64,000 bases of DNA from a virus, in IMG/VR virus record IMGVR_UViG_3300031576_001126, positions 32,001-96,000 of that record; one strand, 5' to 3'. Both the position numbers and the translations under genes were made by a program. Below the pieces are notes generated by a model, which saw only the letters and a list, made by a program, of their open reading frames with translations, was not told the origin of the DNA and searched no databases. Numbering within the stretch: the first letter of the stretch is position 1; every line of letters starts with the position of its first letter. Shown piece after piece: positions 188 through 28,400 of the stretch.

Positions 188-3100
188 CAGCCGTTTTTCG
201 CATGCCGTATATTTCGGCTGCTGGCGAAATACTTACCGGACAAATGGAGTCTACAAGATGGAAAATCGTAGACAAACAATTGGAGGCCCTTTATTCTTTT
301 CTTGGCGATGGCATTATTTCTGGTTGGGAAATTGAAAAAACTCCGAATATACCCTTATCGATTACAATAACACCAGGATCTGGTGTTGTTTCTGGAATAG
401 CTGCTGCAAGTTCAGATAATACAATTCTAGAAAATCTTGTGCCCGGCACTGTTTCTGGAAATACCACAAATTTTTTGTATGCCAAACTCCTCGGCCATAC
501 TCCATATACGGCACAAGTTGACTTTGTATCGTCCACGGTTTTTTATGATTCGGCTGTTTATTTGAAACTTGGAAAAGTTATTGTAGATGCTCAAAAAAAG
601 ATAGTATCTATAGACATGTCTGAGTCATCTGGAAGAAAAAATCTTAGTTTTGTCAATTTTGTCCTGTCCATTGTCAAAGAACATTTACATACTGGAGCGC
701 CAACAGAACCATCAAAGATCGATCTTCAAAATCATGTAAAGGGTATTTTAGATTCATCTCATATTGGAAATATTTCGGCATCCAAAATAACGGGAGGCTT
801 TATTTCTCCAGATAGATTTAAATTATCACATAAAGATTTACAAGATGTTGGCACACTGACACACGAAGAAATAGATTCTTTAATTGAAAAACTTCAAAAC
901 ATAAATAGATTGCTTTTTGGAGATATAATGACATCTAATTTGATGCAACTATATCTTTCTTTTAAACATATTTGGCCTGAAGTTGATGAATTTGCGCAAA
1001 ATTTTATCGCCATTATCCCAGGTATAGGAAACAACAAACTTTTAAACCCGAATAGTTTTATTGATCTTAATGCAACTACGGCTGAAATTGATTTCACAAA
1101 TCACAGAATAAGAGGAAAATCTTTAGCGGCAAAAGAACTTGCTCAAACCACAATAAACACTTTAGCCGAATGGAATTCTGGAGAATTTAATTCAAGTTTT
1201 GTAAGAATTCTAGATACAGGATCAGCTTATGGATATGGTTATGGTTATGGTGAAGGATTAGATTTCTTTGATGTATTTCAAACATCAGATTTTAATTTTC
1301 TGACAGGAACAGATCAATTTATAAGTTTTTCTGGGAATCAAACCGGATATGGCGCTGATGATTTTGAAACTGTTTTTGCGGGACAATATAGTTATGGATA
1401 TGGTTACGAATATGTCTCTGGATTTCCAAACACACTAACCACAACTTTAGTGACTTTAAATCCATTATCGCAAACATTAAACATTCATGACGAAAAACTT
1501 TCAGAAAATGAATCTGGAGGAAATGATTATATCGCATCTGATGTAAATTCTGGATTTTTTGTTCAAAAAGATCTTATTCCAGATGGAACAACAAAAGCTG
1601 CTTTTATAAAAAATTTAGGGAAAGACATAGCAACAACCGCCAGCGGACGAAGAAGCACGTCTATTGATCCATTTAATAATGGTATAAATAATATTCCTGA
1701 TGATTTATATTCTTTTTATTCATTTAAAGTTTCTTCGGGTGCTGATGGTCAAATCACCGATTCCGACAGAGCCACTGTTTATGTTGTTTGGGATAATCCC
1801 GTTGACATGACAATTAACAATGTAATCACCTTCAGAGTCGTCCAGGCAAAGGATGGTGAAGGAAATTTAACGACTTTTGATGAAAATTGGACTTTTGATC
1901 ATAGTTTTCAACTAATACTTGAAGCTACTGATGATACGCATAGAGCATATTATCTTTACAAAACAACAAATTCAACCAACAGATTTTTTGTCGGAGACGA
2001 ATACACGAATCAAAATGAAACCGCTCCTCTTGGTTTCTTTGGAACAAAATATTTTCAATCTCTTGGAGAATTTATAGACGGCAAACACAGATTCGAGTTA
2101 GCTGCCACAATAACCAGTGATTCTCTTGAGTTTGTCACGGCTTTTAATAAGAGCACTGAAGTCACCGTCAACAATCCATTTACATTTACCACATTAATTC
2201 AAAAAATAACTGGAATAATCTTATATACAGATACTATTTTTGGTCATGATAATAAACAACAAAATAATTTAGGAGCCACTTTTGTAAAATTGCCACAAGG
2301 AAGAAGAGAAAGACTACAATTTTATCCGGGTTTCGATCCTTCCGCCAGAATGCTTGCCGATATAGATAAAATATTTATTGGAGGCCCATTTGGTTTCGGC
2401 GATGATGCGGATAACAATGACATTGTGGATTTGATTGTTTCTTTTCCAGATAGAGTTGATTTTAATTCAATTAGTTGGATTTCCGATGAACCCGGAGATT
2501 CCATTGTTTGGATTCAAGTCAATAGACTTGAGGAAGATTCAGCAAACGATTATAGAACAGAACCAATTTATAGCAACAATGTGACACGAGCATCTTCCAT
2601 ATTTCCTTCCTCTGAGATAAGGGGGCCTGGAGAAGATTTTACAGACATATTTAAAAATATTCGTGGTATAAGAATGAGAGTTGTCTTATTGCCAACAACT
2701 GATAAAAGAGTTGCCCCAACAATAAGCAGCATAAGTGTTAATTATTCATCAAATACATTATCTAGTTCTTTAACAATAACTTCTTTTGAAGATTGGCAAA
2801 ATGCACGATCTGTTAAAAATTTGAAGTTGACTACAGATGGAACTGTCTATATCGATTTGCCAACGACAACCTTTGGCAAGGTTCAAAACATTTTTTATGG
2901 AACAGACAGATCTGTGGTTGAAGTAAACAATGATTTTAATACCGTTGTAAAAAGATATAATGGTTCTAATCTTCCTCTCACGGTAACACAACAATTAAAT
3001 AACCGACCCACTGGTCTTTCTGGGGCCATAACAGACCTTAAAAAGATGCGAGAAGGAGACATTGTTCTTCTCGACAGAGATGAGAGTCGGATTGTATATT

Positions 3101-4296
3101 TGGATCAAAATTATAATTTGAAAAAGATAATATCTTCAGAAAGAGTATTTTTTTCAAATATGGATGTCGGCGCTGGAGCGGCCGGAGATACGGCAACTTT
3201 AGTGAAAGCCATTTACAATAGAGAATTGAGTGATGATGGAATTCTTTATTTGGTTTTCTCTCATCAATTAGCCGCATATCCATCTCCAAATAATACCAAT
3301 GTAAAACCAAGCCAAATGTTTATAAAAAGCAAAGGACAAACAATAGATTTATCTTCAATATCCGTATCTGGAGATAGTGTCATAGCTTGCGACAGAGGGA
3401 TTTTGTCATTGAAACTAGACAGCACTATAGCCAATTTTATAGAAAGTGCTGTCAATCCGGTATTTCAGATAAGATTGGATTCAAATCCCGCTGTTATATT
3501 CGCTGGGACAACCACGGTAACGGCTGGAAGAATAGACATGCCAATCGTAAAAATTGGATCCAAGGGTATCTTTTCAAGTTATAATCTTATTTATGCTCCA
3601 ATTCAAGGCGTTGTTGCTTTCGATATAGACAATGATCTTGATATATTGCATCTATTAAAAAGTCAAAAACCTTATTCTTGGGACACCGATTCCAGTGTTG
3701 ATAATGTCTGGTATGCAAGATTCAGTGTAAATAGATTTTGGACATCTTGGAACTCATCTGATTCAAATAGCGCCCTTATTGATCCGAATATAGAAACTAA
3801 CATTAACACTATTCGTGGAACTGAAAGTGATCCAAGTTTAGTTTCTCCAAACTTTTTTATTAATAATTTCTTTGGATACAAGGGCTCATTACAAAGATTT
3901 GGTGATTGGATGCTCATAACGTTATGTGGAGATAAAAAAGTATTCATTACAAAAAAAGATGATTCTACTGAAGGTGTTTTAAAATTCAGACAACCAACAA
4001 CAATAGATTTGCCGGAAGACGGAACAACACCAATGGCGGCGAGACTGGACCCATTAACAACAACCGCTGATGATTTTAATTTTGTTTATGTGGCTTTGAG
4101 TGATTTAAGAAGAGGGACAACAGATAAAACTGGCGAGTCCAAAATTGTAAAAATTCAAGTAGGAGTTGTTCCCTCTCAAATGATTATCTGGACTTGGGGA
4201 TCGGGCAGTGATGAGCGCACGACCCAGGCAGTGTCGTGTAACGATATCCGTCCTCTTCTTTATACAGATGCCGAAGGTGTATTTGTGAGCACATAA
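175..4296 (+). CDS. Large putative virion structural protein (1373 aa): tail/baseplate-anchor-like N-terminus, Tyr/Gly tag, beta-sandwich, C-terminal beta-propeller-like region
   Basis: GGAGAG about 8 nt before ATG. N-terminus (GDGIISGW...ITITPGSG...HLHTG..PSKIDL...DVGTLTHEEID...TSNL) is paralogous to the N-terminus of the 6287-aa ORF. C-terminal DIVLLDRDESRIVYLD / SKIVKIQ..IIWTWG resembles NHL-like blades. Confidence 0.75.
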   Translation: MPRVTAVFRMPYISAAGEILTGQMESTRWKIVDKQLEALYSFLGDGIISGWEIEKTPNIPLSITITPGSGVVSGIAAASSDNTILENLVPGTVSGNTTNFLYAKLLGHTPYTAQVDFVSSTVFYDSAVYLKLGKVIVDAQKKIVSIDMSESSGRKNLSFVNFVLSIVKEHLHTGAPTEPSKIDLQNHVKGILDSSHIGNISASKITGGFISPDRFKLSHKDLQDVGTLTHEEIDSLIEKLQNINRLLFGDIMTSNLMQLYLSFKHIWPEVDEFAQNFIAIIPGIGNNKLLNPNSFIDLNATTAEIDFTNHRIRGKSLAAKELAQTTINTLAEWNSGEFNSSFVRILDTGSAYGYGYGYGEGLDFFDVFQTSDFNFLTGTDQFISFSGNQTGYGADDFETVFAGQYSYGYGYEYVSGFPNTLTTTLVTLNPLSQTLNIHDEKLSENESGGNDYIASDVNSGFFVQKDLIPDGTTKAAFIKNLGKDIATTASGRRSTSIDPFNNGINNIPDDLYSFYSFKVSSGADGQITDSDRATVYVVWDNPVDMTINNVITFRVVQAKDGEGNLTTFDENWTFDHSFQLILEATDDTHRAYYLYKTTNSTNRFFVGDEYTNQNETAPLGFFGTKYFQSLGEFIDGKHRFELAATITSDSLEFVTAFNKSTEVTVNNPFTFTTLIQKITGIILYTDTIFGHDNKQQNNLGATFVKLPQGRRERLQFYPGFDPSARMLADIDKIFIGGPFGFGDDADNNDIVDLIVSFPDRVDFNSISWISDEPGDSIVWIQVNRLEEDSANDYRTEPIYSNNVTRASSIFPSSEIRGPGEDFTDIFKNIRGIRMRVVLLPTTDKRVAPTISSISVNYSSNTLSSSLTITSFEDWQNARSVKNLKLTTDGTVYIDLPTTTFGKVQNIFYGTDRSVVEVNNDFNTVVKRYNGSNLPLTVTQQLNNRPTGLSGAITDLKKMREGDIVLLDRDESRIVYLDQNYNLKKIISSERVFFSNMDVGAGAAGDTATLVKAIYNRELSDDGILYLVFSHQLAAYPSPNNTNVKPSQMFIKSKGQTIDLSSISVSGDSVIACDRGILSLKLDSTIANFIESAVNPVFQIRLDSNPAVIFAGTTTVTAGRIDMPIVKIGSKGIFSSYNLIYAPIQGVVAFDIDNDLDILHLLKSQKPYSWDTDSSVDNVWYARFSVNRFWTSWNSSDSNSALIDPNIETNINTIRGTESDPSLVSPNFFINNFFGYKGSLQRFGDWMLITLCGDKKVFITKKDDSTEGVLKFRQPTTIDLPEDGTTPMAARLDPLTTTADDFNFVYVALSDLRRGTTDKTGESKIVKIQVGVVPSQMIIWTWGSGSDERTTQAVSCNDIRPLLYTDAEGVFVST
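1228..1413 (+). repeat. Tyr/Gly tag copy 1
   Basis: YGYGYGYGEGLDFFDVF...GYG..DFE...QYSYGYGYEY. Confidence 0.85.
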
Positions 4297-10009: not shown

Positions 10010-13000
10010 ATGGCGGATGTTAGTATACAGGCGAATGAAGCCTTTTTAAATTTCTCAGACTTGGAAGGAGATATAAGCTCTCAAAAGTTTTCTATTACAC
10101 CTAATTTGTGGGTCGGACAAGTTTTTTTGTCAAGAACTGATGAATTAGACAAGATTTTTTTCCTTTGCGACAATACGGAAGCTTTAGAAGTTGAACTTTA
10201 TACAGCTTTAGTGAGCGGCGGAGGACAAGTGTTTACCCCCGACTTTCTACTCGCTTCCGTTTCTCATCCAGAAAATGGGGCAAGTCCATTTCAAGATATT
10301 TCTGTTGGGAATCAAAGTAATTCTGGTGGAATTTGGAGAAAAATAACATTTGATACGCCAATTTCTCTTGTTGAGGGCGCATTTTATATAATAGTTTTTA
10401 AAACAACAAGCACATCTAAAAGTCCAACAATTTTCTGGACAGCAAATTATAGACAATCAATAAACCCAATAATCACCGCATCCAATGATGCTGGTGCTAC
10501 ATGGTCAAATGACAATATTGAAACAATAACGGCAGGAAATACACAAGCCGGAGCGGTTTGTTTCGGATACGTTGGAAAAGAAGTTGATACAATTACTTAT
10601 TTGGACTCTGGAACGGTCACAATAGGAGGAACAGTCTCTTCAAGAAGAGGATATTCTGTTTTTCTATATGTTGAAAATTTAGATCCATTAAGCACAACTG
10701 TTGGAATTAACTTTTCGCAATTACCTCCTTCTGATCCAATAAATGGAACCAGCGAAGAAACCGATCAGGCCATGATGAGATGGTATTTTTTTGAAGAAGG
10801 CATTTTGCCAGTTTCTGCTGATTTTGAACCAGTTTTATTCAAAACAAATGTACAAGCAAAATTAGATATTAATGCTGAATTTGTGTTGTATATCCAACCA
10901 GATAGAATCTCGCCCTTGGCCGATACATATTATCCTGAAAGTGAAATAAACACATATGCAAATCCGATAGGGTTGATTCCTATATATAGCAGCACAAAAG
11001 AATTCATAGATTTTGATACTCCTTCCAATGCCTCTGATGAAAACGTCAATATGACTGCATCAACTGATGTAACTGATAGATTTGGAATTCAAAACTGGGC
11101 TCATTTAAAAAACAAAGCTAAACTTGAAACTTCGGGTAATCAAAGGCTGGCTTCTAGTTCTCAAAATCCAAGTTATTTTGATTTTTCAACAGAAAATCCA
11201 AGCAAAGATGTCGAAATTATAAAAACAATAACTCTAGATGGAACATTAGATGGAATAGAAAATGAAGAAGATGTAACAAGAGGATTTAATAGATCTGAAT
11301 TTTTAAAAAACAAATATATATTTTTTTCAAAAAAAGCAGAACAGGGTTATATTTCTTCTCCGTCATATCCAACTACTCCTGGCAAACTTTTGGCTTATGT
11401 TGCCGATAGTGATTTGATAAATTGGGAAAGAAAAACAATATCCGTGCTGGATTCTTCTCCCTCGACTCTTGGTTTGACTTTTGGAGATACAGCTTCAACA
11501 TATATTATTGGAGTTTATGACTCTGTTGTGGTCGCTATGCAAGGTGTTGAAACATTATTTGTTTTATTTCAAACCATATCTTTTTCGACAATTGGATCGG
11601 CAACATTCCCCTCTGGATTCCATATCGGATATTATCAGGGCGATTTTAGTGAAAGCGATATTCAATTTCAATTAATCAATCATGAACTTACAGATGTTCC
11701 AAATCTTGCCGACGTTAATTTTTCAAAGTTTACAGTAAACAATATTGATGAACAAAAATCAAGATTTATATTTCCAAATAATTCGGAAATTTTATATTTT
11801 TCGGCATCTAATGCTTCTGCTATATATGGTCTTGGAATATGGAAAATAAATCTTACTGATAGTTTATCTTCAATTTACGAAGCGGAGAGATTAAAAGTAA
11901 ATTCAGATACATCTATAGAACAAACGGGTATTTCCGACGAAAAAGACAAACAAATAACATTTGTTCTTTACGATGGAAATACAACTTATCTTGGGATTAG
12001 AACTAGTATTTCATACACATTTAGTTCGGTAAATGTCCCTACGATTGGTTCAAGTTATTTTGCAAGAGTTTATAGAACTGATGATTTTACAACATTCGAA
12101 CAATTGCTTGGCGGAGAAGCTTATAATTCGGCTTCTGCCGCCAATTTTCCATCCTGGCTTTCTGGAATTCATAGCGCACAGGATTATGATCCAACAAACG
12201 AAGGTGTTGTTTGGCCTCAGGTCGGAGAAGATTTTATTCCAAGCAACGAAGTCAAATTCATGCATAAAGTTGGAAACATATTGCATGTCTGGACTAATTG
12301 CTCTGCCTTTACTTCTGCGAATACTCCAATACATGTTGCCATAGATATTGTTTCAAAATCGACCAAAGTATTAAGATTGTTCCCAATAGAAGATGAAGCC
12401 GATTCCAGTTACGGAACAATTCCCAAAGTTTCAGATCTTGAGTTATATCCAAGAAGCAAAGCGTTAAGATGGATCGAGGGTGGTTCGGTAAATGGCAATC
12501 ACATTTTTATTTATGGAGCAGAATCATTAACATCATCTCTTGAACCCGCCACAATGAGCGCCTCATTGGATACTTTTGATTATGTCGCTGATCATGTCTT
12601 TAAATCTGATGATTTTAAAACAAGATGGTTGATTTATGATGATAGAACTATAAATGATGCTTTTGAAAAATATAATAGCTTGTCTGATTTTATAGGAAAT
12701 GCTGGAATCTCATCCATTTTATTTGAAGGAACTGGAAATGATGATATAAATATTGGTGGGACATATAGCGGAACAACATTTGACGAAAGATATTTGATTG
12801 AAGTCGAAAATAAAGGTTTGGTTGAATCCTTCACTGCCGGGGTTGGGATAGGTAACGGTCCTCTTGATGATTTTAATGCCAGCGGAACACCAACGGCCAC
12901 ATCTCAAAAAGAATTTATTGTTGAAATAGATAGAATTGCAGAAGTTGGAACAGGAACAGTAGCTAATGCCGGAGTTGGATCTCTAAATGATCCAAGCGCA

Positions 13001-16000
13001 GGATTTGCCGGATCTGGATCCAATGATGCTCAATTTACAACATTATTGTTGACACCTCTCTCTCCCAAAGCCATTGGCGTTGAAATAACATCTCTTGCTG
13101 CAGCAGACGTTTTCACTGGGTCTGGACTTAATGATTTGACGGCGCAAGCATCTTTGAATCCCGGATTAACATCTCAAGAAGAATTCAAGGTTGAAATAGA
13201 TAGCGCAGGATTAATTCCAAATAATACGGGACTTACGGCCTCTGCAAGTCCTGCTCCGACTCAGCAAAAGGATTATCATGTTGAAATAGTCGAGGATGCT
13301 GGAACAGAAATATTTTTAGGTTCAGGGCAGGATGATTTAAATGCAACTGTAACTTCACCATCAGAAAGCTATACTTATCAAATAGAAATAGAAAAATTAG
13401 CTTATGAAGATCAATTTGATCCAGCTATTATTACATCTGTTGTCGGTGATGATTTGGAAGCTTTTGGCAATTCAACAGAAGGATATCTCTATCAAGTAGA
13501 AATCGTCAGAAAAGCCATGGATGTAGAAACTGTAACTGGAACATTTTTGGATGACTTCCAAGTCACAAGACAAGTTGTTTTTAATGGAACTGGAACCAAT
13601 GATTTTGAAATAGTAGAAAGTTTAAGTCAAGATGGAATAGAATATAACTATGATATTTTAATAGAAATAGATGGACTTACATCATACAAATTATCAACTG
13701 ATGGAGGAGCAACTTTTGCCAGCGCATTAAATCCAATTGTAGCCAACACTCCATTTAATGTTGCTAGTTCTGGCTGGCGTGGACAATTCACGGTTGGATC
13801 TGGCTATGTTGTTGGTGATAAATGGTCTTTTCAAACAGTAGCAAATGTTTCGGCTGTTTACAAAGTTGAAATTGATAGTATTGGTTTGGATCCTGCTCCT
13901 GACACAAGTCCAGCAAATGGGGGTATTGATGATTTATCGGCGTCAACATCTGGTGGTGGGCCTTTGGATCAATTTTTATATGAAGTTGAAATAACAGATC
14001 AATCAGCAAGGAATGTGAGTTTTTCAAATCCCAGAATAGCCACAAATGAAGATGGAATATTTACGGCGAACCAAAACTACGATCCATCAACTAGCGCCGG
14101 TGCTTTGATAAAAGCCCTTGGAAATATACCAGAGAATAGGGATTTTGACGATCTTCCATTCGGATCCGATGCAATAGCCTATAGAACAGAAATAGACGGC
14201 AAAGCCCTAGATGCGTCCGTTTATGGATCTTATTTATATACTATTTCAAGAAACATTGTATCAAATTCAATATTTAAAATAATAAACACGTCTCACTTGG
14301 ACAATATACCGTCTCCATTGTCGACAACAAATGTGTCTGTGGATGGTATTGATTTTGTTGTATCTGGAAATTATGCTTATATAATATCAACATCTCTTGG
14401 AGATAATTCTTTAGAGATATACGATGTTTCTGACAAAACTTCTCCAATGTTATTATCAACATTGGATCTCGGAATATTTGTAAGTTCGGTCATTTCTATA
14501 ATTGGAGATACTGTTTATTTAGTGTCTAATGTTGTCCCCTCTCTCCCAAATTCAAGTTCTATAAATTTAATAGTTATAAATGTTGGGAATCCATTAAACC
14601 CATACATAAGAAGTGTGACAAGATCAACCGGAGGAGGAAGCGCTTCTGCCCTTTTTTCATCAAAACCTTTGCCATTAAGAGAGATGGTTTATCTTTCTCA
14701 ATCAAGCACAGCCTCGTTTTTTATTGTTAATGACAAAGATATTCCTCTAAATATAGGCCCAACGGACAACACTTTCGATGGTGGAAGTGGACAGACCGGC
14801 ATAGAGGCTTTAGATGACAGACTTTATGTTGCAAGCAGCAACAATAGAAAAGTTTTTGTATATAACGATCTCTCTTCCATGGAGTCCTTTGTTAGTTATG
14901 TTTTGCTTTCTGGTGGACCATTTTTTGAAGGAGAAATGATTGTAAAAACTTCATCGACTCCTACGGCCGGTGCTAATGCTACAATATTAACCGTAGTTGC
15001 ACCTTTTCCAACATCAGGTGAATTAAAATTAGGAAATGCATCACAATTAACTGGGATAACCATAGCTCCAAGTTCACAGTTTATATCAGGAGATACAATT
15101 TTTGGGGTTGAAAGTGGTGCTACTGCGACATTATCCTCAGGATTAACATTTAAAAACAAAGATGCTTCTGGTGCAAATCAGACTTCTACTGTTGGATTTA
15201 GAAAGGCAGCAACGATAACAACCTTTGGATTGAACCCAAATAATGTTCATCCTTTTAATTTTCTTATAAAGTCCAGTGAAGCAATCATTCTTAGCTCGCC
15301 GCCCATAACCATTGATTCGTTTGAAAATTCTACAGAATTTACATTTACTGTCTCTGGAACAACGGCAACAATATCTGGAAACATTACAGCACAAATTTTA
15401 AATGGATCTACTGTTAAATTTTACAATTTAACTGGCGGATCTGCCAATATTCTATTTGTAACATACAGAACTGTGCGCTCTGTCACCTATAATTCTGGTC
15501 CAAACACTACGACATTTACAATTTCTTCTATTTTAAGCGATAGAACTGGAGGAAAATGCTTTAAAATTGTAAATTATACGTTGCTTGCAGTTTCTTTGAC
15601 TGGAACAAATGCGGGTGTTGAAATTTACGATATGACAAATATCATAAATTTGGATGCATCTTTAAATCCATTAATATATCCATCACAAATGCTTGCAAGA
15701 ATTCCATTGTCAGATTTATCAGGATCTCCAAATTTCATATCAAATAGAGGCGATATTTTATATATATCCACAAGTGCCGGAGTGGATATATTTGAAATAT
15801 CAAGATCTTCCATAGTTCATAGTCATGAAAATCTTGGACATCTTATTGCTAAAAAAATAAACTCAACATCCGCCGGATCAACAATTGGAAGACTTGCCGT
15901 TTCTCCGATAAGTATATCTAATAATGTTGAATTTATAGGAAGGGTTGGACCAGTTTCCTTTACTCCTGTTTCCCTGGCGTCATCTGCTGGAAACAATATT

Positions 16001-19000
16001 CTACAAGCCATATCTGTGGATGGGAGATTGTCATTATCTTCTATTTCTGGATTTAATGCTGGAGATACAATAACTGGCTTGACATCTGGAGCCACGGCTA
16101 TAGTTTTCGCCTCTACAATTGGTTCGACGGCATATGGAAATCTTAATGGGAAATTTATACTTGGAGAAACAATTTCAAGTTCGGGAGGAGGCTCGGCTTC
16201 AAATTTTGGGTTATCAAATCCAGAACTACTAAGTATGAAGTCTGGAAAATACATTATAAAAGCAACATCAAGCACACAATATGTTTACTCTACAGATGGT
16301 GGAAAAACATTTACCACAACGCCAATTTTAATGTTAACATCCTTTGCGGGAATTGGATCAACTGGAGTTAGTATCAGGTTCGAGAGCACAACAACTCATG
16401 TCGCCGGAGATATTTGGGAATTCGAGGTTGGTCCAAATGGAATTTTCGATTACAAGGTTGAGATAGATAGTCTGTGGAATGATTCTTTGATTTTCACTGG
16501 ATCTGGATTGGATGATCTTAAAGTTTTTGGAGATCCGACCAATAATATTGATGTCGAAATAACAATAGATGGAACAGCGGAACAATTCGGATATGGTTAT
16601 GGGTTTGGATTGGGTGGAGACTTTTTCAACATATTCGGTTTTGCCGGCCCAGATTATGGTTATGGCGGAGGATCTTTCGAATATGATTATGCATATTCTT
16701 ATGATTATGGACTAGGATACGAGTATGGATATGGATATCCATTTGAAAACAACGCCACATCAACGGACACATTCTCTTATGTTGCAACAGTAAATAGCAT
16801 AACTATAGCATCTGGTTTTCAAATACCAATAACAGAAGATTTACAAAACATAACAAATGGAATACAAATAGAGTTTGGAAGCAAAGGCAAATTTAGCGAA
16901 GACTATCTCTTCACGTTATTCGGTTCTGCATCTCCGAGTGATGGATTCCAAATAATAAAATTGGATTCTATATATTCTGATTTAACATCTGGAGCAATAG
17001 TAGAAACACAATCTGTAGAAGATGCTGTTACTTTAGGACAAGTTAGTATTGCCTGCGATGAAAACTTAATGATAATAGGCAATCAAACTACTCCGTCTGT
17101 TTATATTTACAACACTAGAGATCCAGAGAATACCCATCTTGTTGGTGTGGAATCAGTAGTCCAGAATTGTGAAGACATTAGAATAAATGACAATTTACTA
17201 TTTATCGGTGGAAATTCTGGAGGAAACTCTCAATTTGTTATATATGATTTAACATATGCACAAGTTTCTGAACTTGTTGAGGACGATGTTGTTAATTTAT
17301 CGGATCCTTTTGTGAACATAAGAATAAAAGATGATTATGCTTTTGTTTTGGTAGATGACAGCGTTAATATAATTCTTCAATCTTGGGATATTTCCAATCC
17401 AATCAGTGTTCCAGTTTCGCCTGATGATACTTTGTCTTTGTCGTTTACGTCCGGCGGAGCGGATGCCTTGTCGTCTACAATTTCTGGAAATTATCATTAT
17501 TCTGCTGGGAATGTATCTGGAACATATTTTTTGAAAACTGTCGACATAACAAATCCAACGGCGCTTGTTTTATCAAGCTCTATATCTTTTGAATCTTCTT
17601 TTGTGGTTTTTTCCATAACATCTACTAATAATTTTTTATATATAACAGGACATAGGACAGTCCCAATTAATGCCGAAAGGCTTGTAAAGGTGTATGATAT
17701 TGTTTCTACTCCTGGAACTCCGGTTTTTACTGGAGAATATAAAGACTCCTTTGATGGTGCAGATTCTAGGATGACAGACATAAAAGCCAAAGATGGTATT
17801 GTGTATACAATGGCATTAAATAATAGCACTTCAGCATCATCCCTCTATATAATAGATGTTTCTCAACCAACAAATCCGTCATTATTAACAAGTATATTGG
17901 TTGCTGATTACACTGTTTTATTAAATCTATGCACATTAACAAGAACGCAGGGGCATACTTATGGGGACAAATGGAATTTTTCATCCAGAGACACATTTAG
18001 ATGGACCGATGACGCAAGAAGACCAGTTACCATTTGGAACGAAGAAGAAGTCGAGATAAATTCTGGAATTCAGAACATAGACAATTTAACCGCAGTGCTT
18101 TTCTTAGAAAAAACAGCAGGATATGCTCTTGGTGACACTTGGGATTTTTCAACTGTTGATACTTTTAGATGGGCGGCGGATATAACTGGAACGGTATTGG
18201 ATATTTCTGATTCAAGTTTTGAATGGCAAGAAGAAAAAATCAAAGCGCCATTTGAAGGCGGAGTTATTGATCTAGAATCCACTTCTCCATTTGACAATCC
18301 AAATGTTAAATTGGATTTCTTTGATTCCAACGGATATTTCATAGGAGATTTTATAGACTGGTCATACACTCAACAAGATAGTTATTCTGTAAGAATTTAT
18401 GAATTTAATCCACTTCTTGGTTTGGATGTAATTAGAACATCACCATTTTTGATTACTCCAACTACGCCAACTTTGCCAACAAATCAACTTGTTACCGCAG
18501 GATCTCCGGTGTCGGTTGCAATAACTTCTCCTGAAGCAACTGGCCCTGTTTTTGTGGAGTTTGATGGTGGAATAGGACACAAAACTGGAGATAAATGGAC
18601 ATTTACAACACTAGATACATTCAGATGGACAGATAAAGTTTTTCCTCAACTTATTGACAACGATCCTATCTCTGGTTTTGTTATTCAATGGAATGAAACA
18701 AAAGTTCCAATTATGACGGACGTATTAACTCTATATTCTTTAAATAATAATGTTGATATTACCATAGGTAATAAAAATGGCCATGATATAGGAGATGCTT
18801 GGATTTTTTCAACTGTTGATACTTTTAAATATTCGGTTGGGGATGATCTAGATGACTTGTCTCAAAAAAGAACCGATATTCCCATACCTCTCGAAGGAGG
18901 AATTTCAAGCATTGGAAAACAAGATACTGCCGCAAACGATAAAGATTCTGAAAATAATGTATTTATAGATTCAAACTATGATGTAGGACACAGTATTGGT

Positions 19001-22000
19001 GATAAATGGACATTTTCAACAACTGATGCCTTTAGATATATCATATTGAACTTTGGATATGGTTATGGATTTGGATCGGGGGCCGATTACTTTGATGTGT
19101 TTGGTCATCTTGGAGGATTTGTTGGATATGGATGGGATACTTCAAATCAAATAGGCACAAATAATCAATTATTTGAATCTGTTAATGCATCACAATATGG
19201 ATATGGAACGGGATATGAATATGGTTTTGGTCAATATGGATTCTCTTTTGACATAGACATTAATTGCATTCCAATAAAATTAACAAACAACATAGGCAAT
19301 GGTGTTGTTTTGGATTTTTCAAATCTTTCTGGGCACAGTGGAAATGAAATTTGGCAATTTTCATCATCAGACAAGTTTGTCTACAATATAGACGGTGGAT
19401 CTGATATTGGACCAATAAATGTGAGTGATGATTTTGTTGGTGTTGAAAACGGGATATCAATAAAATTCAACAGTCTTTCTGGATTTTCAGTTGGAGATTC
19501 TTGGGATTTTAAAACAATAGATACTTTTAAATATTATGAAGATAATGTTCTTATTGCTTCTAATATTAATTTATCAACATCGTCAATAAGTCTTGAGTCA
19601 TATATGAGCATATCGTTTGGAAACGTGACTGGCCATACTGTTGGCAATTATTGGACTTTTGATGCTTTAGATGAATTCACGTATGAAGTTAAAACTCTTC
19701 CAAACACCAAAACGCTTAACGATAGCATAGTTCTTGGATCAACCATTACTGGATCGACATCTGTTATAACTGGGATTTCTCAACCCGTTGGAGGAGGCTC
19801 AGATGTTGATGTTACATTTACAAATCAAAATGGACACACTCTTGGAGATAAATGGAGAATAGCAAATGTTGATTCTTATAAGTGGAGTGATAATAATGGC
19901 TTATCTTATACCATATTAAAAATAGCGACATCAACACCAAGTCTTCTTTCCAATGGAATTTCAGCAAGTTTCCCAACTCTTAACAATTTGAGAAATCACA
20001 ACGTTGGAGACAAATGGACTTTCGATGCTTTAGATGAAATTAAGTGGTCTAAAAATAATGGGTCCACATTTGAAGCAAGTGGATTGCCCGCCTTGATATC
20101 TCCGACAACATCGATAGGGAGTGGTCTTAATTTTTCATTTGATGCATCACTTGGACATGATATCGGGGATATATGGACTTTTCATCCAGTTCCAAAAATA
20201 GGGTATCAACTTGTGGAAGGGAAAGGTGTTTATCATGGAAAAACAATAGCGATATTTGATCACGATGAAACAGCAAGAATGTTTTCTGATTATCCCGCTC
20301 TTTCTCCGGATCTTAGTACTCTATCAACAAAACCAAGGGCTGGAATTTATTGTGGATTAGTTAACTATGCTGGAAGTTCTGTTGATAATATAGAATTTGA
20401 CAATTCAAATACCCCAGAATCAATAATAACAGCTAATGGTATTACTTATATAATATCTGAAAATGATGACGACGGAATAAGAGCGTTTAAAACCTATGGA
20501 ATAAAAGAACTTCCTCAAAATTGGGGTAAATCTTTTCAAACATCTTTGGGAGCGCAATCAACTATAACTGCTTTTGAAAAAATAGATATAGATAAAGCAA
20601 ATTTTGAACTCGCTGTCGGAGGGCCAAGCACTTTTGTAAATATCATAAGAAGAGGCCATGTTCAAAAAATAAATGGCGCTGTATTTATTTCTGAAATAAA
20701 AAAAGATTCATTATCTGCTGGATTTGATAATGTAAACTTAACATTTCCCAATAGATCTATTTTAGCTATATCTAATACGCTAAGAAGACCTCAAGAAATA
20801 ACAGCTTTCTTTAATATTAATTATCTTGGAGATATAGAGTCGGATGTCATAGGCGGTGTTCCTGTGGCCGATATTCTCTCAAATATAGAGGCTTCCAACA
20901 CGAATATTTTTATAAAATGCGCAGAAACCATAGAAAAATTATTTGAAGAACCAAAAGCCATATTAGATATTCCCCTGGCTCAAGATGTTGATGGAAGTAA
21001 TTCTACAAGATCTCTTATATCAAACACATTCCAAACAGATACTGAAAATAACTTCTTCAGAATAGAAAGTAACAATCTTCTATCGGATGATAGTGGAAGC
21101 GGAAATCCAAGAGAATTAGTTGATTTGAAAATAAAAGGATTAAGATTACACGATATAACTTTGCAAGGTCCTGAAGAAAATACAAACAATATGAAAGTTG
21201 CTGTTACTGGCATAATTGACGAAGGATCAGGAGTTCCTGAAAATGCTCTTCAAAACGGAGTTCATGTGCCTTCCAATGGGGAGATAATCGTTGATTTCAA
21301 CAAACCAATTTATTTAAGCGAAATCAGCTTTGACGTTGAATACTTTGGAACGGATTTAGCTGGCGCTAACCAATCTCAATTCTCGATATATGCTCTTACG
21401 ACATTCCACAATCAAAAATATGGAAATAATATAATTGACAAGAATGATTGGACTTTAATTGGATCTCCGGAGTTTGTAAGTCTTACTGGAAATCAAGATT
21501 CCATTTCAAAAGATGCCATAGGCATGTTTGTAAAGTCAGTAAGAATATTTCTTAATTCCGGGGTCACCCTGAAAGTAAAGAATCTGTCATTCAAAAGTTT
21601 TACTGGATCTTCTGATCAATTTTCTTCAAGTGGAGATGTGAAGTCCCCGGAAATGATAACAATAGATGATCCATTCGGAATCCTTGTTGCGGATATTTCC
21701 GGGATGCCGTCTTCTTTTGCAGTGTTAAATAGTGACGGCAGCAATATAACTATAGATTTAGAGGAAAACGTTCCTGTCACAAGAATTTCTCTCGGAGCAT
21801 ATTCCGGAAACGATCCAACAAAATCTTTGAAAATAGAATCATGGGACGGAGCCACTACATTGCTTGGGTCTCCGGTTTATGAAATACTTCATAATGCTCC
21901 AATAAGCGATTATGAACTTTCTGTTGTACAATGGACTCCAAGATTAAAAGATAAGTCCAGAGAAGTTCAAGTTATTTTCCTTTCTTCAGGGGATATAGAA

Positions 22001-22450
22001 AGCGAAAGTCAATTGAACGATTTAATTGAATCATATAACAAACCAGAAAACTCAGCGTTACTTGCAAATTCTGGACTTTCCGGTTTTGTTTTCAAGCCAA
22101 ATACTTTAAAGGATAGAACGCTTACAATAACTTCTTCAAAAGAATCTTCTGGGGAATTTGACGGTTCTATTTTTGTCAATGCACAGATGGATGAAGATGG
22201 ACCTTTTGCTTCTGATTTATCAGAGGAAACTTTAGGATTAATTGAGAAAAAGATTAATGTAGATTTCCCGCTTAGACAAATAAGAAAAATAAAAATTTCT
22301 TTGACTAGCCAAATGCCTAACAACGCTGGTGTCAGGGTAAACGGTCTCAAAATATACTCGCCAATTGTCGATGAAACAGGCACAGCGGAATTCCCAAGAA
22401 CTGGGGTTGCATGGACAATAAGACTCACAGCAAGCATTATAACGCAATAA
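10010..22450 (+). CDS. Giant putative virion fibre/adhesin (4146 aa) with nested repeat stalk, two LVIVD beta-propeller regions and two Tyr/Gly tags; paralog of the next gene
   Basis: GGAG 8 nt upstream of ATG. LVIVD-type blades (VVSGNYAYI...LEIYDVSDKTSP, LYIIDVSQPTNP). FISGDTIFGVESGATA and FNAGDTITGLTSGATA motifs typical of T4-like virion proteins. N- and C-terminal blocks align with 22464..29219. Confidence 0.75.
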   Translation: MADVSIQANEAFLNFSDLEGDISSQKFSITPNLWVGQVFLSRTDELDKIFFLCDNTEALEVELYTALVSGGGQVFTPDFLLASVSHPENGASPFQDISVGNQSNSGGIWRKITFDTPISLVEGAFYIIVFKTTSTSKSPTIFWTANYRQSINPIITASNDAGATWSNDNIETITAGNTQAGAVCFGYVGKEVDTITYLDSGTVTIGGTVSSRRGYSVFLYVENLDPLSTTVGINFSQLPPSDPINGTSEETDQAMMRWYFFEEGILPVSADFEPVLFKTNVQAKLDINAEFVLYIQPDRISPLADTYYPESEINTYANPIGLIPIYSSTKEFIDFDTPSNASDENVNMTASTDVTDRFGIQNWAHLKNKAKLETSGNQRLASSSQNPSYFDFSTENPSKDVEIIKTITLDGTLDGIENEEDVTRGFNRSEFLKNKYIFFSKKAEQGYISSPSYPTTPGKLLAYVADSDLINWERKTISVLDSSPSTLGLTFGDTASTYIIGVYDSVVVAMQGVETLFVLFQTISFSTIGSATFPSGFHIGYYQGDFSESDIQFQLINHELTDVPNLADVNFSKFTVNNIDEQKSRFIFPNNSEILYFSASNASAIYGLGIWKINLTDSLSSIYEAERLKVNSDTSIEQTGISDEKDKQITFVLYDGNTTYLGIRTSISYTFSSVNVPTIGSSYFARVYRTDDFTTFEQLLGGEAYNSASAANFPSWLSGIHSAQDYDPTNEGVVWPQVGEDFIPSNEVKFMHKVGNILHVWTNCSAFTSANTPIHVAIDIVSKSTKVLRLFPIEDEADSSYGTIPKVSDLELYPRSKALRWIEGGSVNGNHIFIYGAESLTSSLEPATMSASLDTFDYVADHVFKSDDFKTRWLIYDDRTINDAFEKYNSLSDFIGNAGISSILFEGTGNDDINIGGTYSGTTFDERYLIEVENKGLVESFTAGVGIGNGPLDDFNASGTPTATSQKEFIVEIDRIAEVGTGTVANAGVGSLNDPSAGFAGSGSNDAQFTTLLLTPLSPKAIGVEITSLAAADVFTGSGLNDLTAQASLNPGLTSQEEFKVEIDSAGLIPNNTGLTASASPAPTQQKDYHVEIVEDAGTEIFLGSGQDDLNATVTSPSESYTYQIEIEKLAYEDQFDPAIITSVVGDDLEAFGNSTEGYLYQVEIVRKAMDVETVTGTFLDDFQVTRQVVFNGTGTNDFEIVESLSQDGIEYNYDILIEIDGLTSYKLSTDGGATFASALNPIVANTPFNVASSGWRGQFTVGSGYVVGDKWSFQTVANVSAVYKVEIDSIGLDPAPDTSPANGGIDDLSASTSGGGPLDQFLYEVEITDQSARNVSFSNPRIATNEDGIFTANQNYDPSTSAGALIKALGNIPENRDFDDLPFGSDAIAYRTEIDGKALDASVYGSYLYTISRNIVSNSIFKIINTSHLDNIPSPLSTTNVSVDGIDFVVSGNYAYIISTSLGDNSLEIYDVSDKTSPMLLSTLDLGIFVSSVISIIGDTVYLVSNVVPSLPNSSSINLIVINVGNPLNPYIRSVTRSTGGGSASALFSSKPLPLREMVYLSQSSTASFFIVNDKDIPLNIGPTDNTFDGGSGQTGIEALDDRLYVASSNNRKVFVYNDLSSMESFVSYVLLSGGPFFEGEMIVKTSSTPTAGANATILTVVAPFPTSGELKLGNASQLTGITIAPSSQFISGDTIFGVESGATATLSSGLTFKNKDASGANQTSTVGFRKAATITTFGLNPNNVHPFNFLIKSSEAIILSSPPITIDSFENSTEFTFTVSGTTATISGNITAQILNGSTVKFYNLTGGSANILFVTYRTVRSVTYNSGPNTTTFTISSILSDRTGGKCFKIVNYTLLAVSLTGTNAGVEIYDMTNIINLDASLNPLIYPSQMLARIPLSDLSGSPNFISNRGDILYISTSAGVDIFEISRSSIVHSHENLGHLIAKKINSTSAGSTIGRLAVSPISISNNVEFIGRVGPVSFTPVSLASSAGNNILQAISVDGRLSLSSISGFNAGDTITGLTSGATAIVFASTIGSTAYGNLNGKFILGETISSSGGGSASNFGLSNPELLSMKSGKYIIKATSSTQYVYSTDGGKTFTTTPILMLTSFAGIGSTGVSIRFESTTTHVAGDIWEFEVGPNGIFDYKVEIDSLWNDSLIFTGSGLDDLKVFGDPTNNIDVEITIDGTAEQFGYGYGFGLGGDFFNIFGFAGPDYGYGGGSFEYDYAYSYDYGLGYEYGYGYPFENNATSTDTFSYVATVNSITIASGFQIPITEDLQNITNGIQIEFGSKGKFSEDYLFTLFGSASPSDGFQIIKLDSIYSDLTSGAIVETQSVEDAVTLGQVSIACDENLMIIGNQTTPSVYIYNTRDPENTHLVGVESVVQNCEDIRINDNLLFIGGNSGGNSQFVIYDLTYAQVSELVEDDVVNLSDPFVNIRIKDDYAFVLVDDSVNIILQSWDISNPISVPVSPDDTLSLSFTSGGADALSSTISGNYHYSAGNVSGTYFLKTVDITNPTALVLSSSISFESSFVVFSITSTNNFLYITGHRTVPINAERLVKVYDIVSTPGTPVFTGEYKDSFDGADSRMTDIKAKDGIVYTMALNNSTSASSLYIIDVSQPTNPSLLTSILVADYTVLLNLCTLTRTQGHTYGDKWNFSSRDTFRWTDDARRPVTIWNEEEVEINSGIQNIDNLTAVLFLEKTAGYALGDTWDFSTVDTFRWAADITGTVLDISDSSFEWQEEKIKAPFEGGVIDLESTSPFDNPNVKLDFFDSNGYFIGDFIDWSYTQQDSYSVRIYEFNPLLGLDVIRTSPFLITPTTPTLPTNQLVTAGSPVSVAITSPEATGPVFVEFDGGIGHKTGDKWTFTTLDTFRWTDKVFPQLIDNDPISGFVIQWNETKVPIMTDVLTLYSLNNNVDITIGNKNGHDIGDAWIFSTVDTFKYSVGDDLDDLSQKRTDIPIPLEGGISSIGKQDTAANDKDSENNVFIDSNYDVGHSIGDKWTFSTTDAFRYIILNFGYGYGFGSGADYFDVFGHLGGFVGYGWDTSNQIGTNNQLFESVNASQYGYGTGYEYGFGQYGFSFDIDINCIPIKLTNNIGNGVVLDFSNLSGHSGNEIWQFSSSDKFVYNIDGGSDIGPINVSDDFVGVENGISIKFNSLSGFSVGDSWDFKTIDTFKYYEDNVLIASNINLSTSSISLESYMSISFGNVTGHTVGNYWTFDALDEFTYEVKTLPNTKTLNDSIVLGSTITGSTSVITGISQPVGGGSDVDVTFTNQNGHTLGDKWRIANVDSYKWSDNNGLSYTILKIATSTPSLLSNGISASFPTLNNLRNHNVGDKWTFDALDEIKWSKNNGSTFEASGLPALISPTTSIGSGLNFSFDASLGHDIGDIWTFHPVPKIGYQLVEGKGVYHGKTIAIFDHDETARMFSDYPALSPDLSTLSTKPRAGIYCGLVNYAGSSVDNIEFDNSNTPESIITANGITYIISENDDDGIRAFKTYGIKELPQNWGKSFQTSLGAQSTITAFEKIDIDKANFELAVGGPSTFVNIIRRGHVQKINGAVFISEIKKDSLSAGFDNVNLTFPNRSILAISNTLRRPQEITAFFNINYLGDIESDVIGGVPVADILSNIEASNTNIFIKCAETIEKLFEEPKAILDIPLAQDVDGSNSTRSLISNTFQTDTENNFFRIESNNLLSDDSGSGNPRELVDLKIKGLRLHDITLQGPEENTNNMKVAVTGIIDEGSGVPENALQNGVHVPSNGEIIVDFNKPIYLSEISFDVEYFGTDLAGANQSQFSIYALTTFHNQKYGNNIIDKNDWTLIGSPEFVSLTGNQDSISKDAIGMFVKSVRIFLNSGVTLKVKNLSFKSFTGSSDQFSSSGDVKSPEMITIDDPFGILVADISGMPSSFAVLNSDGSNITIDLEENVPVTRISLGAYSGNDPTKSLKIESWDGATTLLGSPVYEILHNAPISDYELSVVQWTPRLKDKSREVQVIFLSSGDIESESQLNDLIESYNKPENSALLANSGLSGFVFKPNTLKDRTLTITSSKESSGEFDGSIFVNAQMDEDGPFASDLSEETLGLIEKKINVDFPLRQIRKIKISLTSQMPNNAGVRVNGLKIYSPIVDETGTAEFPRTGVAWTIRLTASIITQ
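14190..15910 (+). other. LVIVD-repeat beta-propeller region 1 (with inserted small domains)
   Basis: ALDASVYGSYLY, DFVVSGNYAYI..LEIYDVSD..SP, LIVINVGNPLNP, GVEIYDMTN, ISNRGDILYISTSAGVDIFEIS. Confidence 0.6.
16586..16738 (+). repeat. Tyr/Gly tag copy 2 (apex of nested stalk)
   Basis: FGYGYGFGLGGDFFNIFG..DYGYGGGSFEYDYAYSYDYGLGYEYGYGY. Confidence 0.85.
16900..17940 (+). other. LVIVD-repeat beta-propeller region 2
   Basis: VYIYNTRDPEN, DIRINDNLLFI, IRIKDDYAFV..WDISNP, TISGNYHY..VDITNPT, LYIIDVSQPTNP. Confidence 0.65.
19052..19243 (+). repeat. Tyr/Gly tag copy 3
   Basis: FGYGYGFGSGADYFDVFG...GYG...LFE...QYGYGTGYEYGFG. Confidence 0.85.
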
Positions 22451-25400: not shown

Positions 25401-28400
25401 GCTGAATTTAGTTCAATAGAGGATCTGTTCACAACATCTGGGCTTGGAGACGAGATAATAAATAATGATGTAAAATTCATGTATAAAGTAGGAAATATAT
25501 TGCATGCATGGATATGTCCTCATTTTTTTGATGAAAAAAACACACCAATGCATATTGGCATAGATACAAATAACAAACTTATTTCGGTTTTAAGAAAATT
25601 TCCAATAGAAAATGTTGGCGATTCTAATTATGAGATATCTCCAAAAGTTTCAGATCTTGAGCTATACCCAAGAAGCAAAGCGTTAAGATGGATCGAAGAC
25701 GGTTCAGTAAATGGAAACTATATTTATATCTGTGGGGCCGATACATTATCCTCAAACACTGAAAATCCAACTCAAGATATAATAAATATAAATGATAATG
25801 TTCCTGTTTGCCATAGTTATCCAGATTCTTATTCTGCAAGATGGATAATGTATGATGACAGAATAATAAACAAACCTTTTGTATCTGATATAAACAATAG
25901 AAAATTTTTTATGTTTATCCCAAACTCAACATCCTTAATTGCGATTGGTGTCGGAAGAGATTCCGCAGAATTGGTAAAGGATTATCCCAGTATAACGTCA
26001 ACGTATGCCGACTTAGCTGTGAAATTAAATAGCGATGTTGGATATTACAAAGAGAATCCTCCAGTAAATAAAATTAAAATACTAGATATGAGAGACGGAA
26101 CAAATATAACTGTTATTAATAATACTGGAATAAGTGGAGGTGAAAATTTTGGAACAATAAACAATGGAATTTTTGTAACAAACAACAATGTTTATATAAC
26201 AAAGGGATCTGATTTTAGAATATATACTTCGGCTTCCATTTTAAACCCAAATTCTTCAGTTTTTGGATCCGTTTCCATTTCATCTCCTTTTGGGAAAAAG
26301 TTTTTTGGAACAGTTTCTGTATTTGAGCCAAACATTGCAGTAGGAATAATTGTAGATCTAGCAACCGGATTCCTGTCTAGTTTGGTTTTGATAAACATAT
26401 CAAATAAAGCATTCCCTTCGGCAATTCAATATTTGCCAAATCTTCCCTTTGGTGAAAGTTATTTATCTTTAGATTTTAGCGATACAGGAAACACATTGTA
26501 TGCCGCCGGGAGAAATGTTAGTGGAAATTTTATAGATATTTTTGATGTAAGTTCATCAATGTTGAATTTTGTAACGAGATTACAGACGGGCTCAACTTTT
26601 TTCTTTACAGACAGAATAAAAGTTCAAAGAGGAAAAAACAAAATAATATACAACATTTCTAATGTTGTTTTCGTATACGATATCTCTGCCGAATTAAATC
26701 CTATTCTTATGGATTCAATTGGTTTTTTAGCAAACATAGCTTTTATATCTTTCTTAAACGGAGGTCATCCTGAATCTGACGAAATTGATGATATAATATT
26801 CGTGGTATTAACAAATGGCGAAATCAATGCCTTGGATATCTCGAATATATCTATTGATGGTATTGTTACTTTGTATAATAAAAAAATATTAAATAGCGTT
26901 GTTCCTTTTACTCATTTTTCTGACATAGGAAGTTCTATAAAAATCAGAGAAGGTTTTGAAACGATAAGAGGCAAGGGCATATACAATGGAAAAACGGTTA
27001 TAAAATTTGATCATGATGAAAAATCATCAACTTTTAAAAAATATCCAGCTTTATTCCCTGACGATTCCACCGTAGAGACTAAACCAAGAGTCGGCATGTA
27101 TTGTGGATTGGTTTCTTATGGTTCTGATGAAAACATAGGAATAGAAAATGACACAAACAACATTATATCAAAATTATTTTCTTATGGTGGTATAAATTAT
27201 ATTTCTGTTAATAATGAAAATAGTGGATTTAATTTATATAAAACATATGGCATTAAAGAACTTCCACAAAATTGGGGCAATTCTTATAGAGACATAGAGG
27301 GAAACTTGGCCGACATAAACACCTATTATTCTCTTGATATAGATAAAGCTGCATTTGAAAATGTTTTTTTTGGCAAAGAAACATTTAAAAATATATCTAG
27401 AATATCGGAAACAATAAATTCAAACAATACATATTTTATTTCAGAATTAAAAACAAACAATTTATCATCCAATTTTATTGACATAGATACGGATAATCCA
27501 GAAAGAAATCTTGTATTTTTAAATCTAAATTACAAAAAACCACAACACATATCTATGTTTTATAATCTAAATTATTTTGGAGATGGTTCTGACATATTGG
27601 ATTTGAGTGACACAAACACATCTGAGACAGAATTAACGTTTACTTCCGCACAAACATTGGAAAAACTTTTTACAGATCCGGATCAAATTATAACCATACC
27701 TTTGGCTCAGGAAGTTTCCAATGATCCATCAAATAGGACTTTTATAAGAAAAACTTTACCAGCAGATATCTCATCTAATTTTTTCAGAATAGAATCAAGC
27801 TCAGTTTATGATAATGAGGCTAATGGTATAAATGTTTATATAAAATCTCTTTCTGTGAATGATGTTTCTCTTAGTTTCCCCGATTCTGAGACAGCAATTA
27901 AAACCGTGGTGGTTAATGGAATTGTATACGGAACATCACAAAGTCCAGAAAATATTATAGAAAATGACGCTATTTTGCCTCCAGATGGGGAAATAATAAT
28001 AGACTTCACTAAACCAATATATATAAATGAAATAAATTTCAAAGCCAAATATTCAAGCCCAGACTTTAAAGGTGTTGGAAGAGCAGAGTTTGAATTTTTA
28101 GCAATAACAAATATTGAAAAGGAATCAACGGGCAATGACTTGGTGTCTTCTAAAGACTGGATAAGTCTTGGAAATTCTGTATTTTATGGAAACCTAAATA
28201 ACGAAAGCGAAATATCAAAGAAAAACATATTGTCATACATACAATCTATTAGAATAATTTTAAAGTCTTCAATATCTATAACAATCAAAGAATTATCGAT
28301 AAGGGGCTTTTCTTCTGGATTATTAAATCAATTTGTTTCGTCTGGAGATATCAAATCCCAAGAATTAATTTTAGTAGATGATATTTTCGGTTTGCTTGAG

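Follow-up and report, generated by a model that had tools for sequence, protein, structure and literature searches.

We analyzed a 64,000-nucleotide window (positions 32,001 to 96,000) of the IMG/VR virus record IMGVR_UViG_3300031576_001126, in which one plus-strand open reading frame (ORF) at 10010-22450 encodes a protein of 4146 residues, P0001, that carries a long array built from two types of repeat unit. The gene lies within a run of giant co-directional ORFs, and residue r of the protein begins at window base 10010+3(r-1). Because the source record (140 kb, G+C ~34%) has an estimated completeness of 42%, we regard it as a fragment of a jumbo phage genome. The repeats listed in a preliminary description of the sequence are present at the positions given there and all fall in this single ORF; moreover, motif and hidden Markov model (HMM) scans show that both unit types are confined to it within the genome. 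Syntenic orthologs of P0001 occur in two other assemblies (P0002, 3993 residues, 48% identity; P0003, 4897 residues, 40% identity), and both have the same repeat units in unchanged order. No array-bearing protein other than these two was returned when 1.8 billion representatives were searched exhaustively with phmmer, and a scan of viral contigs with the C-terminal domain of P0001 gave no further relatives.

The motif and HMM scans define an N-type unit of ~35 residues, consisting of FxGxGxDD[LF], a loop, and a YxVEID strand, and a C-type unit of ~50-80 residues, which starts with DTF[KR]W, often continues with an Asp-box-like turn, and ends with GHxxGDxWxF. The relationship between the two became clear from proteins outside this genome. 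A profile of the C-type unit found P0004, and the matching region of P0004 then found a set of 31 proteins (P0004-P0034) of 343-979 residues, whose varied architectures include PF11134, an S74 fibre end, and a deacetylase with a LamG-like domain. Every one of these 31 proteins contains a single C-type unit. In 29 the profiles of P0001 itself also place a single N-type unit immediately ahead of it; in the remaining two, the N-type motif can be made out in the alignment at a sub-threshold score. When a profile of 97 states built from the 31 external proteins alone was run on P0001, it matched a contiguous copy at residues 1186-1279 over states 4-95, which bears out the single intact repeat noted in the preliminary description. 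The same profile matched the N-type units over states 4-46 only (independent E-values of 1e-6 to 4e-3) and the C-type units over states 40-93 only (4e-9 to 1e-5 for most). Given this split matching, the repeat pattern is not due to chance, and the two unit types are established as the N- and C-halves of one domain. The domain is split at the short turn leading from the VEID strand to the DTFKW strand, and the length of this turn is already variable among the single-copy members.

The contiguous domain of ~95 residues is widespread in phage structural proteins as a single-copy module, and we regard it as a candidate for a new family without a Pfam entry. Cultured Cellulophaga and Maribacter phages have it in virion structural proteins. 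One contiguous copy (residues 568-651, E 1.9e-28) is present in gp097 of Cellulophaga phage phi40:1 (L012:2294-6268), which is annotated as a structural protein on the basis of tandem mass spectrometry proteomics. The single-copy form in gp097 and P0004-P0034 is homologous to the P0001 domain and shares both its motifs and their order; it occurs there once and uninterrupted, however, whereas in P0001 the domain is split 12 times and nested. Searches of either half against Pfam, PHROGs, and the PDB sequences gave zero matches, and the C-halves vary too much for their alignment to be used in scanning loci. Several other identities were rejected. The N- and C-halves are not variants of one repeat (hhalign E 0.17 over 7 columns). 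The N-halves do not correspond to an RTX beta-roll, in that they give no match to Pfam HemolysinCabind at E 0.1 and show one GxGxDDL turn per ~35 residues with no tandem nonapeptides. Some C-halves contain an SxDGGxTF turn reminiscent of BNR/Asp-box propeller blades, but there is no Pfam match, and the blade assignment is also disfavoured by an AlphaFold model (see below) in which the unit is a sandwich that matches flagellar D2 domains.

Using a relaxed strand motif over residues 850-3420, and requiring conservation in both orthologs, we count 14 VEID-type strands in P0001 (residues 928, 969, 1022, 1059, 1089, 1123, 1161, 1216, 1284, 1324, 1391, 2081, 2148, and 2180), most of which have FxGxGxDD upstream. 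There are also 14 C-halves, at residues 1223-1276 and 2088-2139 and, designated B1-B12, at 2252-3392 (window 16760-20185); all 14 strands and all 14 C-halves are conserved in P0002 and P0003. Strands 1216 and 2081 are connected to their respective C-halves by a four-residue turn, and both pairs are therefore contiguous copies, namely the one at residues 1186-1279 and a second, shorter one at 2076-2139. With these set aside, 12 orphan N-halves are followed by 12 orphan C-halves in each of the three orthologs. The preliminary description had given about 11 N-halves and 12 C-halves; the latter number stands, and the former becomes exactly 12 once a missed unit at residues 1375-1397 is counted. 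The N-halves are not strictly consecutive, as had been supposed, given that the two intact copies and an insert of ~680 residues after 1375-1397 intervene. Nor are the C-halves all uninterrupted: B1 is split by an insert with LVIVD motifs, and B7 by the second of two Tyr/Gly-rich modules.

Read as opening and closing brackets, the orphan halves are properly nested. The mirror pairs are 928-B12, 969-B11, 1022-B10, 1059-B9, 1089-B8, and 1123-B7 at the outer levels, and 1161-B6, 1284-B5, 1324-B4, 1391-B3, 2148-B2, and 2180-B1 at the inner levels. Successive C-halves are separated by linkers that are mostly of 3 residues (one is of 5), as expected for a rigid stack. In addition, N-halves 1284, 1391, and 2148 are without the usual FxGxGxDD part, and in this parse they pair exactly with B5, B3, and B2, which form a distinct C-half subtype with an extra W-N-E strand, while the full N-half 1324 located between FxGxGxDD-less ones pairs with the ordinary B4. 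This correspondence of subtypes is no more than suggestive.

By scanning metagenomes for the conserved C-terminal domain of P0001, we identified a 1570-residue homolog on a 60-kb contig (L011:6325-11037) that consists of the chassis alone. Its residues 1-793 align with residues 1-892 of P0001 (28% identity, E 3e-72) and its residues 812-1565 with residues 3396-4142 (32% identity, E 9e-98), so that 18 residues in this short homolog stand at the position of 2,503 residues (893-3395) in P0001. The junction is identical in P0002 and P0003. The first N-half begins 8 residues past the junction, and the end of B12 lies 4 residues ahead of it; a strand with the sequence YQLVEG after B12 was considered as a fifteenth VEID strand and rejected, as it aligns with the short homolog and hence belongs to the chassis. 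The 18-residue bridge means that the 2,503-residue module is an insertion in a single loop, the ends of which must meet provided that the chassis fold is kept at ~30% identity. With adjacent ends and complementary halves located at them, the outermost domain closes, and the same argument then repeats inward. Additional evidence is provided by the next ORF, which encodes a paralog of the chassis without a stalk. In the loop that bears the stalk in P0001, the paralog has an insert of ~360 residues (1141-1505; window 25884-26978) in which LVIVD-like motifs can be recognized by eye, although it gives no Pfam match; relative to the short homolog, there is also a second insert of ~265 residues at 352-618. 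The short homolog and the paralog thus support, through insertion in a single loop, the earlier proposal that both ends of the stalk are located at its base.

We obtained a structural model of the domain with AlphaFold for residues 1184-1335, after adding unit fragments of the three orthologs (30 of C-type, 18 of N-type) to deepen the alignment. Confidence is high for the VEID strand together with the C-half (predicted local distance difference test, pLDDT, 82-90), and this strand lies inside the C-half sandwich, which establishes a core composed of the two. A structural search of 48,161 chains gave the D2 domain of FlgL as the best match (5ziz, Z 7.4, 85 residues, root-mean-square deviation 3.1), followed by FlgL (7c7z, Z 6.7), FlgK (4ut1, Z 6.4), a flagellin outer domain (Z 5.5), and a hook-filament junction protein (Z 5.3), with the first hit below these five flagellar proteins at Z 4.4. 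FliD D2 was also matched, over a chain range spanning its D3 insertion. Foldseek agrees weakly with the flagellar match (E 0.014), and against the PDB and BFVD it gave weak matches only.

The D2 domain of FlgL, itself an insertion in a helix, is a sandwich of eight strands with sheets b5-b12-b7-b8-b9 and b6-b11-b10, in which the first and last strands pair and the third strand is in the middle of a sheet (PMC6155364). With the eight strands of the model mapped in order onto this sandwich, the first short strand of the P0001 domain would adjoin the last, placing the domain termini next to each other, and the VEID strand would lie mid-sheet, with the final strand of the C-half on one side and its first strand on the other. 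The turn at which the domain is split would then be at the end opposite the termini, which is the geometry that a linear nest requires. With the VEID strand in the middle of the sheet, a C-half on its own would be without a central antiparallel strand.

Considered together, these results make it probable that the module in P0001 is a nested, 12-domain, out-and-back rod in one chassis loop. The recursive insertion put forward in the preliminary description thus finds support in four independent lines, namely the recognition of the units as halves of one domain, their 12/12 mirror order, the insertion in a single loop, and the predicted fold. In the mechanism we propose, a virion-type jumbo-phage protein with a conserved chassis in two parts (residues 1-892 and 3396-4146) would hold the 2,503-residue cassette in a surface loop of that chassis, the unit of the cassette being the beta-sandwich insertion domain of ~95 residues. 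The chassis loop would hold a first copy, whose hairpin from the VEID to the DTFKW strand would itself receive a second copy, and so on to a depth of 12. The outward chain would lay down 12 N-halves, each contributing two short strands and the VEID strand, turn at a Tyr/Gly loop, and return laying down 12 C-halves of five strands each. Each C-half would complete the domain of the mirror-positioned N-half, from 928 with B12 through to 2180 with B1. The product would be a two-stranded rod of ~12 domains, with a length that we estimate at ~30-40 nm, which might zip from tip to base as the protein folds. Such a rod would lift two LVIVD propeller-type domains off the chassis: the first would belong to the tip domain, and the second would share the interval between levels 10 and 11 with an intact side bead. 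Another intact side bead would be located between levels 7 and 8. A role in adhesion or in reaching a receptor may be envisaged for the assembly. A variant in which the last strand of one C-half fills the strand slot of the next was rejected on topology, as that strand would probably need three neighbours.

A number of observations weigh against this nested rod. No mirror pattern emerges when the units are compared by similarity matrix, as they are too diverged, and the conservation of paired halves across the orthologs is weakly correlated for the final pairing (Spearman 0.42, p 0.18) and was negatively correlated for an earlier provisional one (r -0.43). Two of the 14 strands (1391 and 2081) are detectable by the relaxed motif only. 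The depth of the nest among relatives is either 0 levels (the short homolog and the paralog) or 12 (the three orthologs), with no intermediates. An AlphaFold model of the N-half array (residues 895-1340), based on a three-row ortholog alignment, is unusable at a mean pLDDT of 30, and even in the model described above the FxGxGxDD part reaches only 51-65, with the trailing strand and the next N-half at ~50. All Z values of the fold matches are below 8, which is too low to claim a shared fold safely and may reflect merely a common arrangement, and the strand order is taken from FlgL and not from coordinates. Finally, a nest 12 levels deep implies a very high contact order and N-halves that are unfolded during translation.

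Two other explanations for the arrays have to be weighed against the nested rod. It is conceivable, if improbable, that the mirror-ordered halves complement each other between chains, the N-half array of one subunit zipping with the C-half array of its neighbour to give domain-swapped crossed or paired stalks. The evidence for complementation applies equally to such an assembly, since sequence alone cannot separate a hairpin monomer from a swapped oligomer, and oligomers are the rule among the fibre and baseplate proteins of phages. Both ends of the module leave one 18-residue chassis loop, however, so that closure within the chain is simplest; moreover, the innermost pair is separated by the 64-residue Tyr/Gly stretch only, and the single-copy domain is contiguous, and hence intrachain, everywhere else that it is found.

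The remaining explanation, to which we assign a similarly small and perhaps slightly smaller likelihood, is that the two arrays fold independently, with the N-halves forming a repeat structure of their own (a hairpin stack or solenoid), the C-halves forming five-strand beads, and the equality of their numbers being a coincidence. The C-halves do contain their own aromatic-rich core, the low-confidence AlphaFold model of the N-half array speaks neither for nor against, and the lack of a mirror pattern in unit similarity or conservation would be understandable if the halves did not pair. Against this, both halves retain the full signature of the contiguous domain, and the VEID strand is an integral, confidently predicted strand of the sandwich, without which the first and last strands of the C-half would have to pair in parallel. 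Independent folding also has to contend with counts of exactly 12 and 12 in three orthologs, and a linear string of ~25 beads leaves the meeting of the module ends unexplained.

The closest precedent for the nested rod is Si3 of cyanobacterial RNA polymerase, which represents the deepest recursive self-insertion, at six levels, in a survey of 2.7 million domains (PMC13114784). Si3, located in beta' (RpoC2) and composed of sandwich-barrel hybrid/HABAS domains, is likewise a self-inserted family: its first halves precede its second halves in mirror order, and an elongated arm results. It differs from the P0001 module in fold and family, with no sequence relation, in depth (6 versus 12 levels), and in belonging to a polymerase as opposed to a virion-type phage protein; unlike Si3, the P0001 stalk also bears propeller-type domains and side beads. 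To say that the architecture differs from every known design would therefore be too strong, self-insertion to six levels having been published (PMC13114784). A further parallel is provided by the flagellar axial proteins (flagellin D0-D3, FliD D1-D3, and D2 of FlgK and FlgL), which have anchored, conserved termini and a variable middle that runs out and back, as in P0001. These proteins nest unlike domains 2-4 deep, the D3 domain of FliD being an insertion in a loop of D2 (PMC8533109), rather than one repeated domain, and they have no detectable sequence similarity to P0001.

With somewhat more reserve than we attach to the rod itself, we think it likely that P0001 contains the deepest natural self-inserted domain, with 12 levels or twice the published six, built from an undescribed phage domain and forming a height-setting, two-stranded rod for which folding is possible solely from the tip towards the base, once the return strand exists. 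If so, the known depth of recursive domain insertion would be doubled, and P0001 would be a natural system for the study of folding at extreme contact order, in which N-halves await the return strand. The work also defines a new domain family in phage structural proteins whose members are portable between loops, and mass spectrometry has verified one of them in Cellulophaga phages. Comparison of the relatives in three steps on one chassis, from a bare loop to an LVIVD-like insert on the loop and then to a propeller on a 12-level stalk, shows a route by which giant phage surface proteins grow. Phages might, if the nested reading is right, tune the reach of binding domains by recursive self-insertion, and this would suggest how rigid spacers might be designed with an adjustable length and the two ends sharing a single anchor point.

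As regards the regions carried by the stalk, the preliminary assignment of the propellers to the LVIVD type is upheld, in that PF08309 passes its gathering cut-off of 20.2 bits both over residues 1332-2075 (24.5 bits) and over the insert in B1 (residues 2293-2641; 22.3 bits). In the B1 insert there is, beside LVIVD, a weak match to the DUF6923 repeat that is below the cut-off (E 2e-4). The Tyr/Gly-rich stretch (residues 2187-2250, 64 residues) lies between the last N-half and B1, precisely at the turning point at which it had been placed earlier, and the second Tyr/Gly module (19052-19261) is within B7 (19022-19363). In P0003, ~680 extra residues rich in Trp/Gly repeats (L005:16568-18460, residues ~2190-2820) are present between the Tyr/Gly turn and B1; they have no Pfam match, and their location marks the turning point as a hot spot for further insertion. 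The junction loop region of the short homolog holds a Tyr/Gly-like run (GFSYQYGYQFGVYDG), a hint that the Tyr/Gly module marks the original loop. The coordinates of all these features are collected in Table 1.

Table 1. Features of the P0001 locus in window coordinates, with the evidence for each assignment.
Feature	Position	Strand	Evidence
ORF P0001, 4146 residues, whole feature	10010..22450	+	orthologs P0002 and P0003 syntenic
N-terminal chassis domain, residues 1-892	10010..12685	+	L011 alignment
Inserted module, residues 893-3395	12686..20194	+	18-residue loop in L011
Orphan N-halves A1-A7, levels 1-7 (strands 928-1161)	12707..13507	+	motif/HMM, external profile
Extra FxGxGxDD-like segment and intact domain (strand 1216, C-half 1223-1276), read as side bead	13508..13834	+	external profile, AlphaFold
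Orphan N-halves, levels 8-10: strand-only 1284, full 1296-1329, short 1375-1397 (strand 1391)	13835..14200	+	conserved in both orthologs
Large insert, residues 1398-2075, LVIVD propeller-type region	14201..16234	+	PF08309
Contiguous copy 2: VEID-like strand 2081 and C-half 2088-2139	16235..16426	+	motif, profile
Orphan N-halves, levels 11-12: strand-only 2148, full 2157-2186	16427..16567	+	motif/HMM
Tyr/Gly-rich stretch at turning point	16568..16759	+	~680 further residues in P0003 at this point
C-half B1 (level 12), split by 349-residue LVIVD insert before last strand	16760..17980	+	HMM, ortholog comparison
LVIVD insert inside B1, 349 residues (2293-2641)	16886..17932	+	PF08309
C-halves B2-B12 (levels 11 down to 1)	17981..20185	+	HMM, profile
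C-terminal chassis domain, residues 3396-4146	20195..22447	+	L011 alignment
Chassis paralog, 2251 residues	22464..29219	+	comparison with short homolog

Some information is also available on the surroundings of the gene. A PHROG scan that took in eight proteins, seven encoded upstream of the window and one by its first ORF, yielded a sole named match, in which L006:6448-7569 (genome 16447-17568) matches phrog_290, a minor tail protein (E 1.3e-9); this is consistent with a tail or virion module. The window ORF at 30638-37225 (2195 residues) has 33% identity over ~2,000 residues to an ORF on the contig of the short homolog (L011:13966-20844), and the block of giant genes is therefore partly syntenic with that phage. 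The N-terminal ~360 residues of the ORF that precedes P0001 (4297-9996, 1899 residues) match a 689-residue ORF upstream of the short homolog with 25% identity, and this neighbour may also be an expanded form of a smaller protein.

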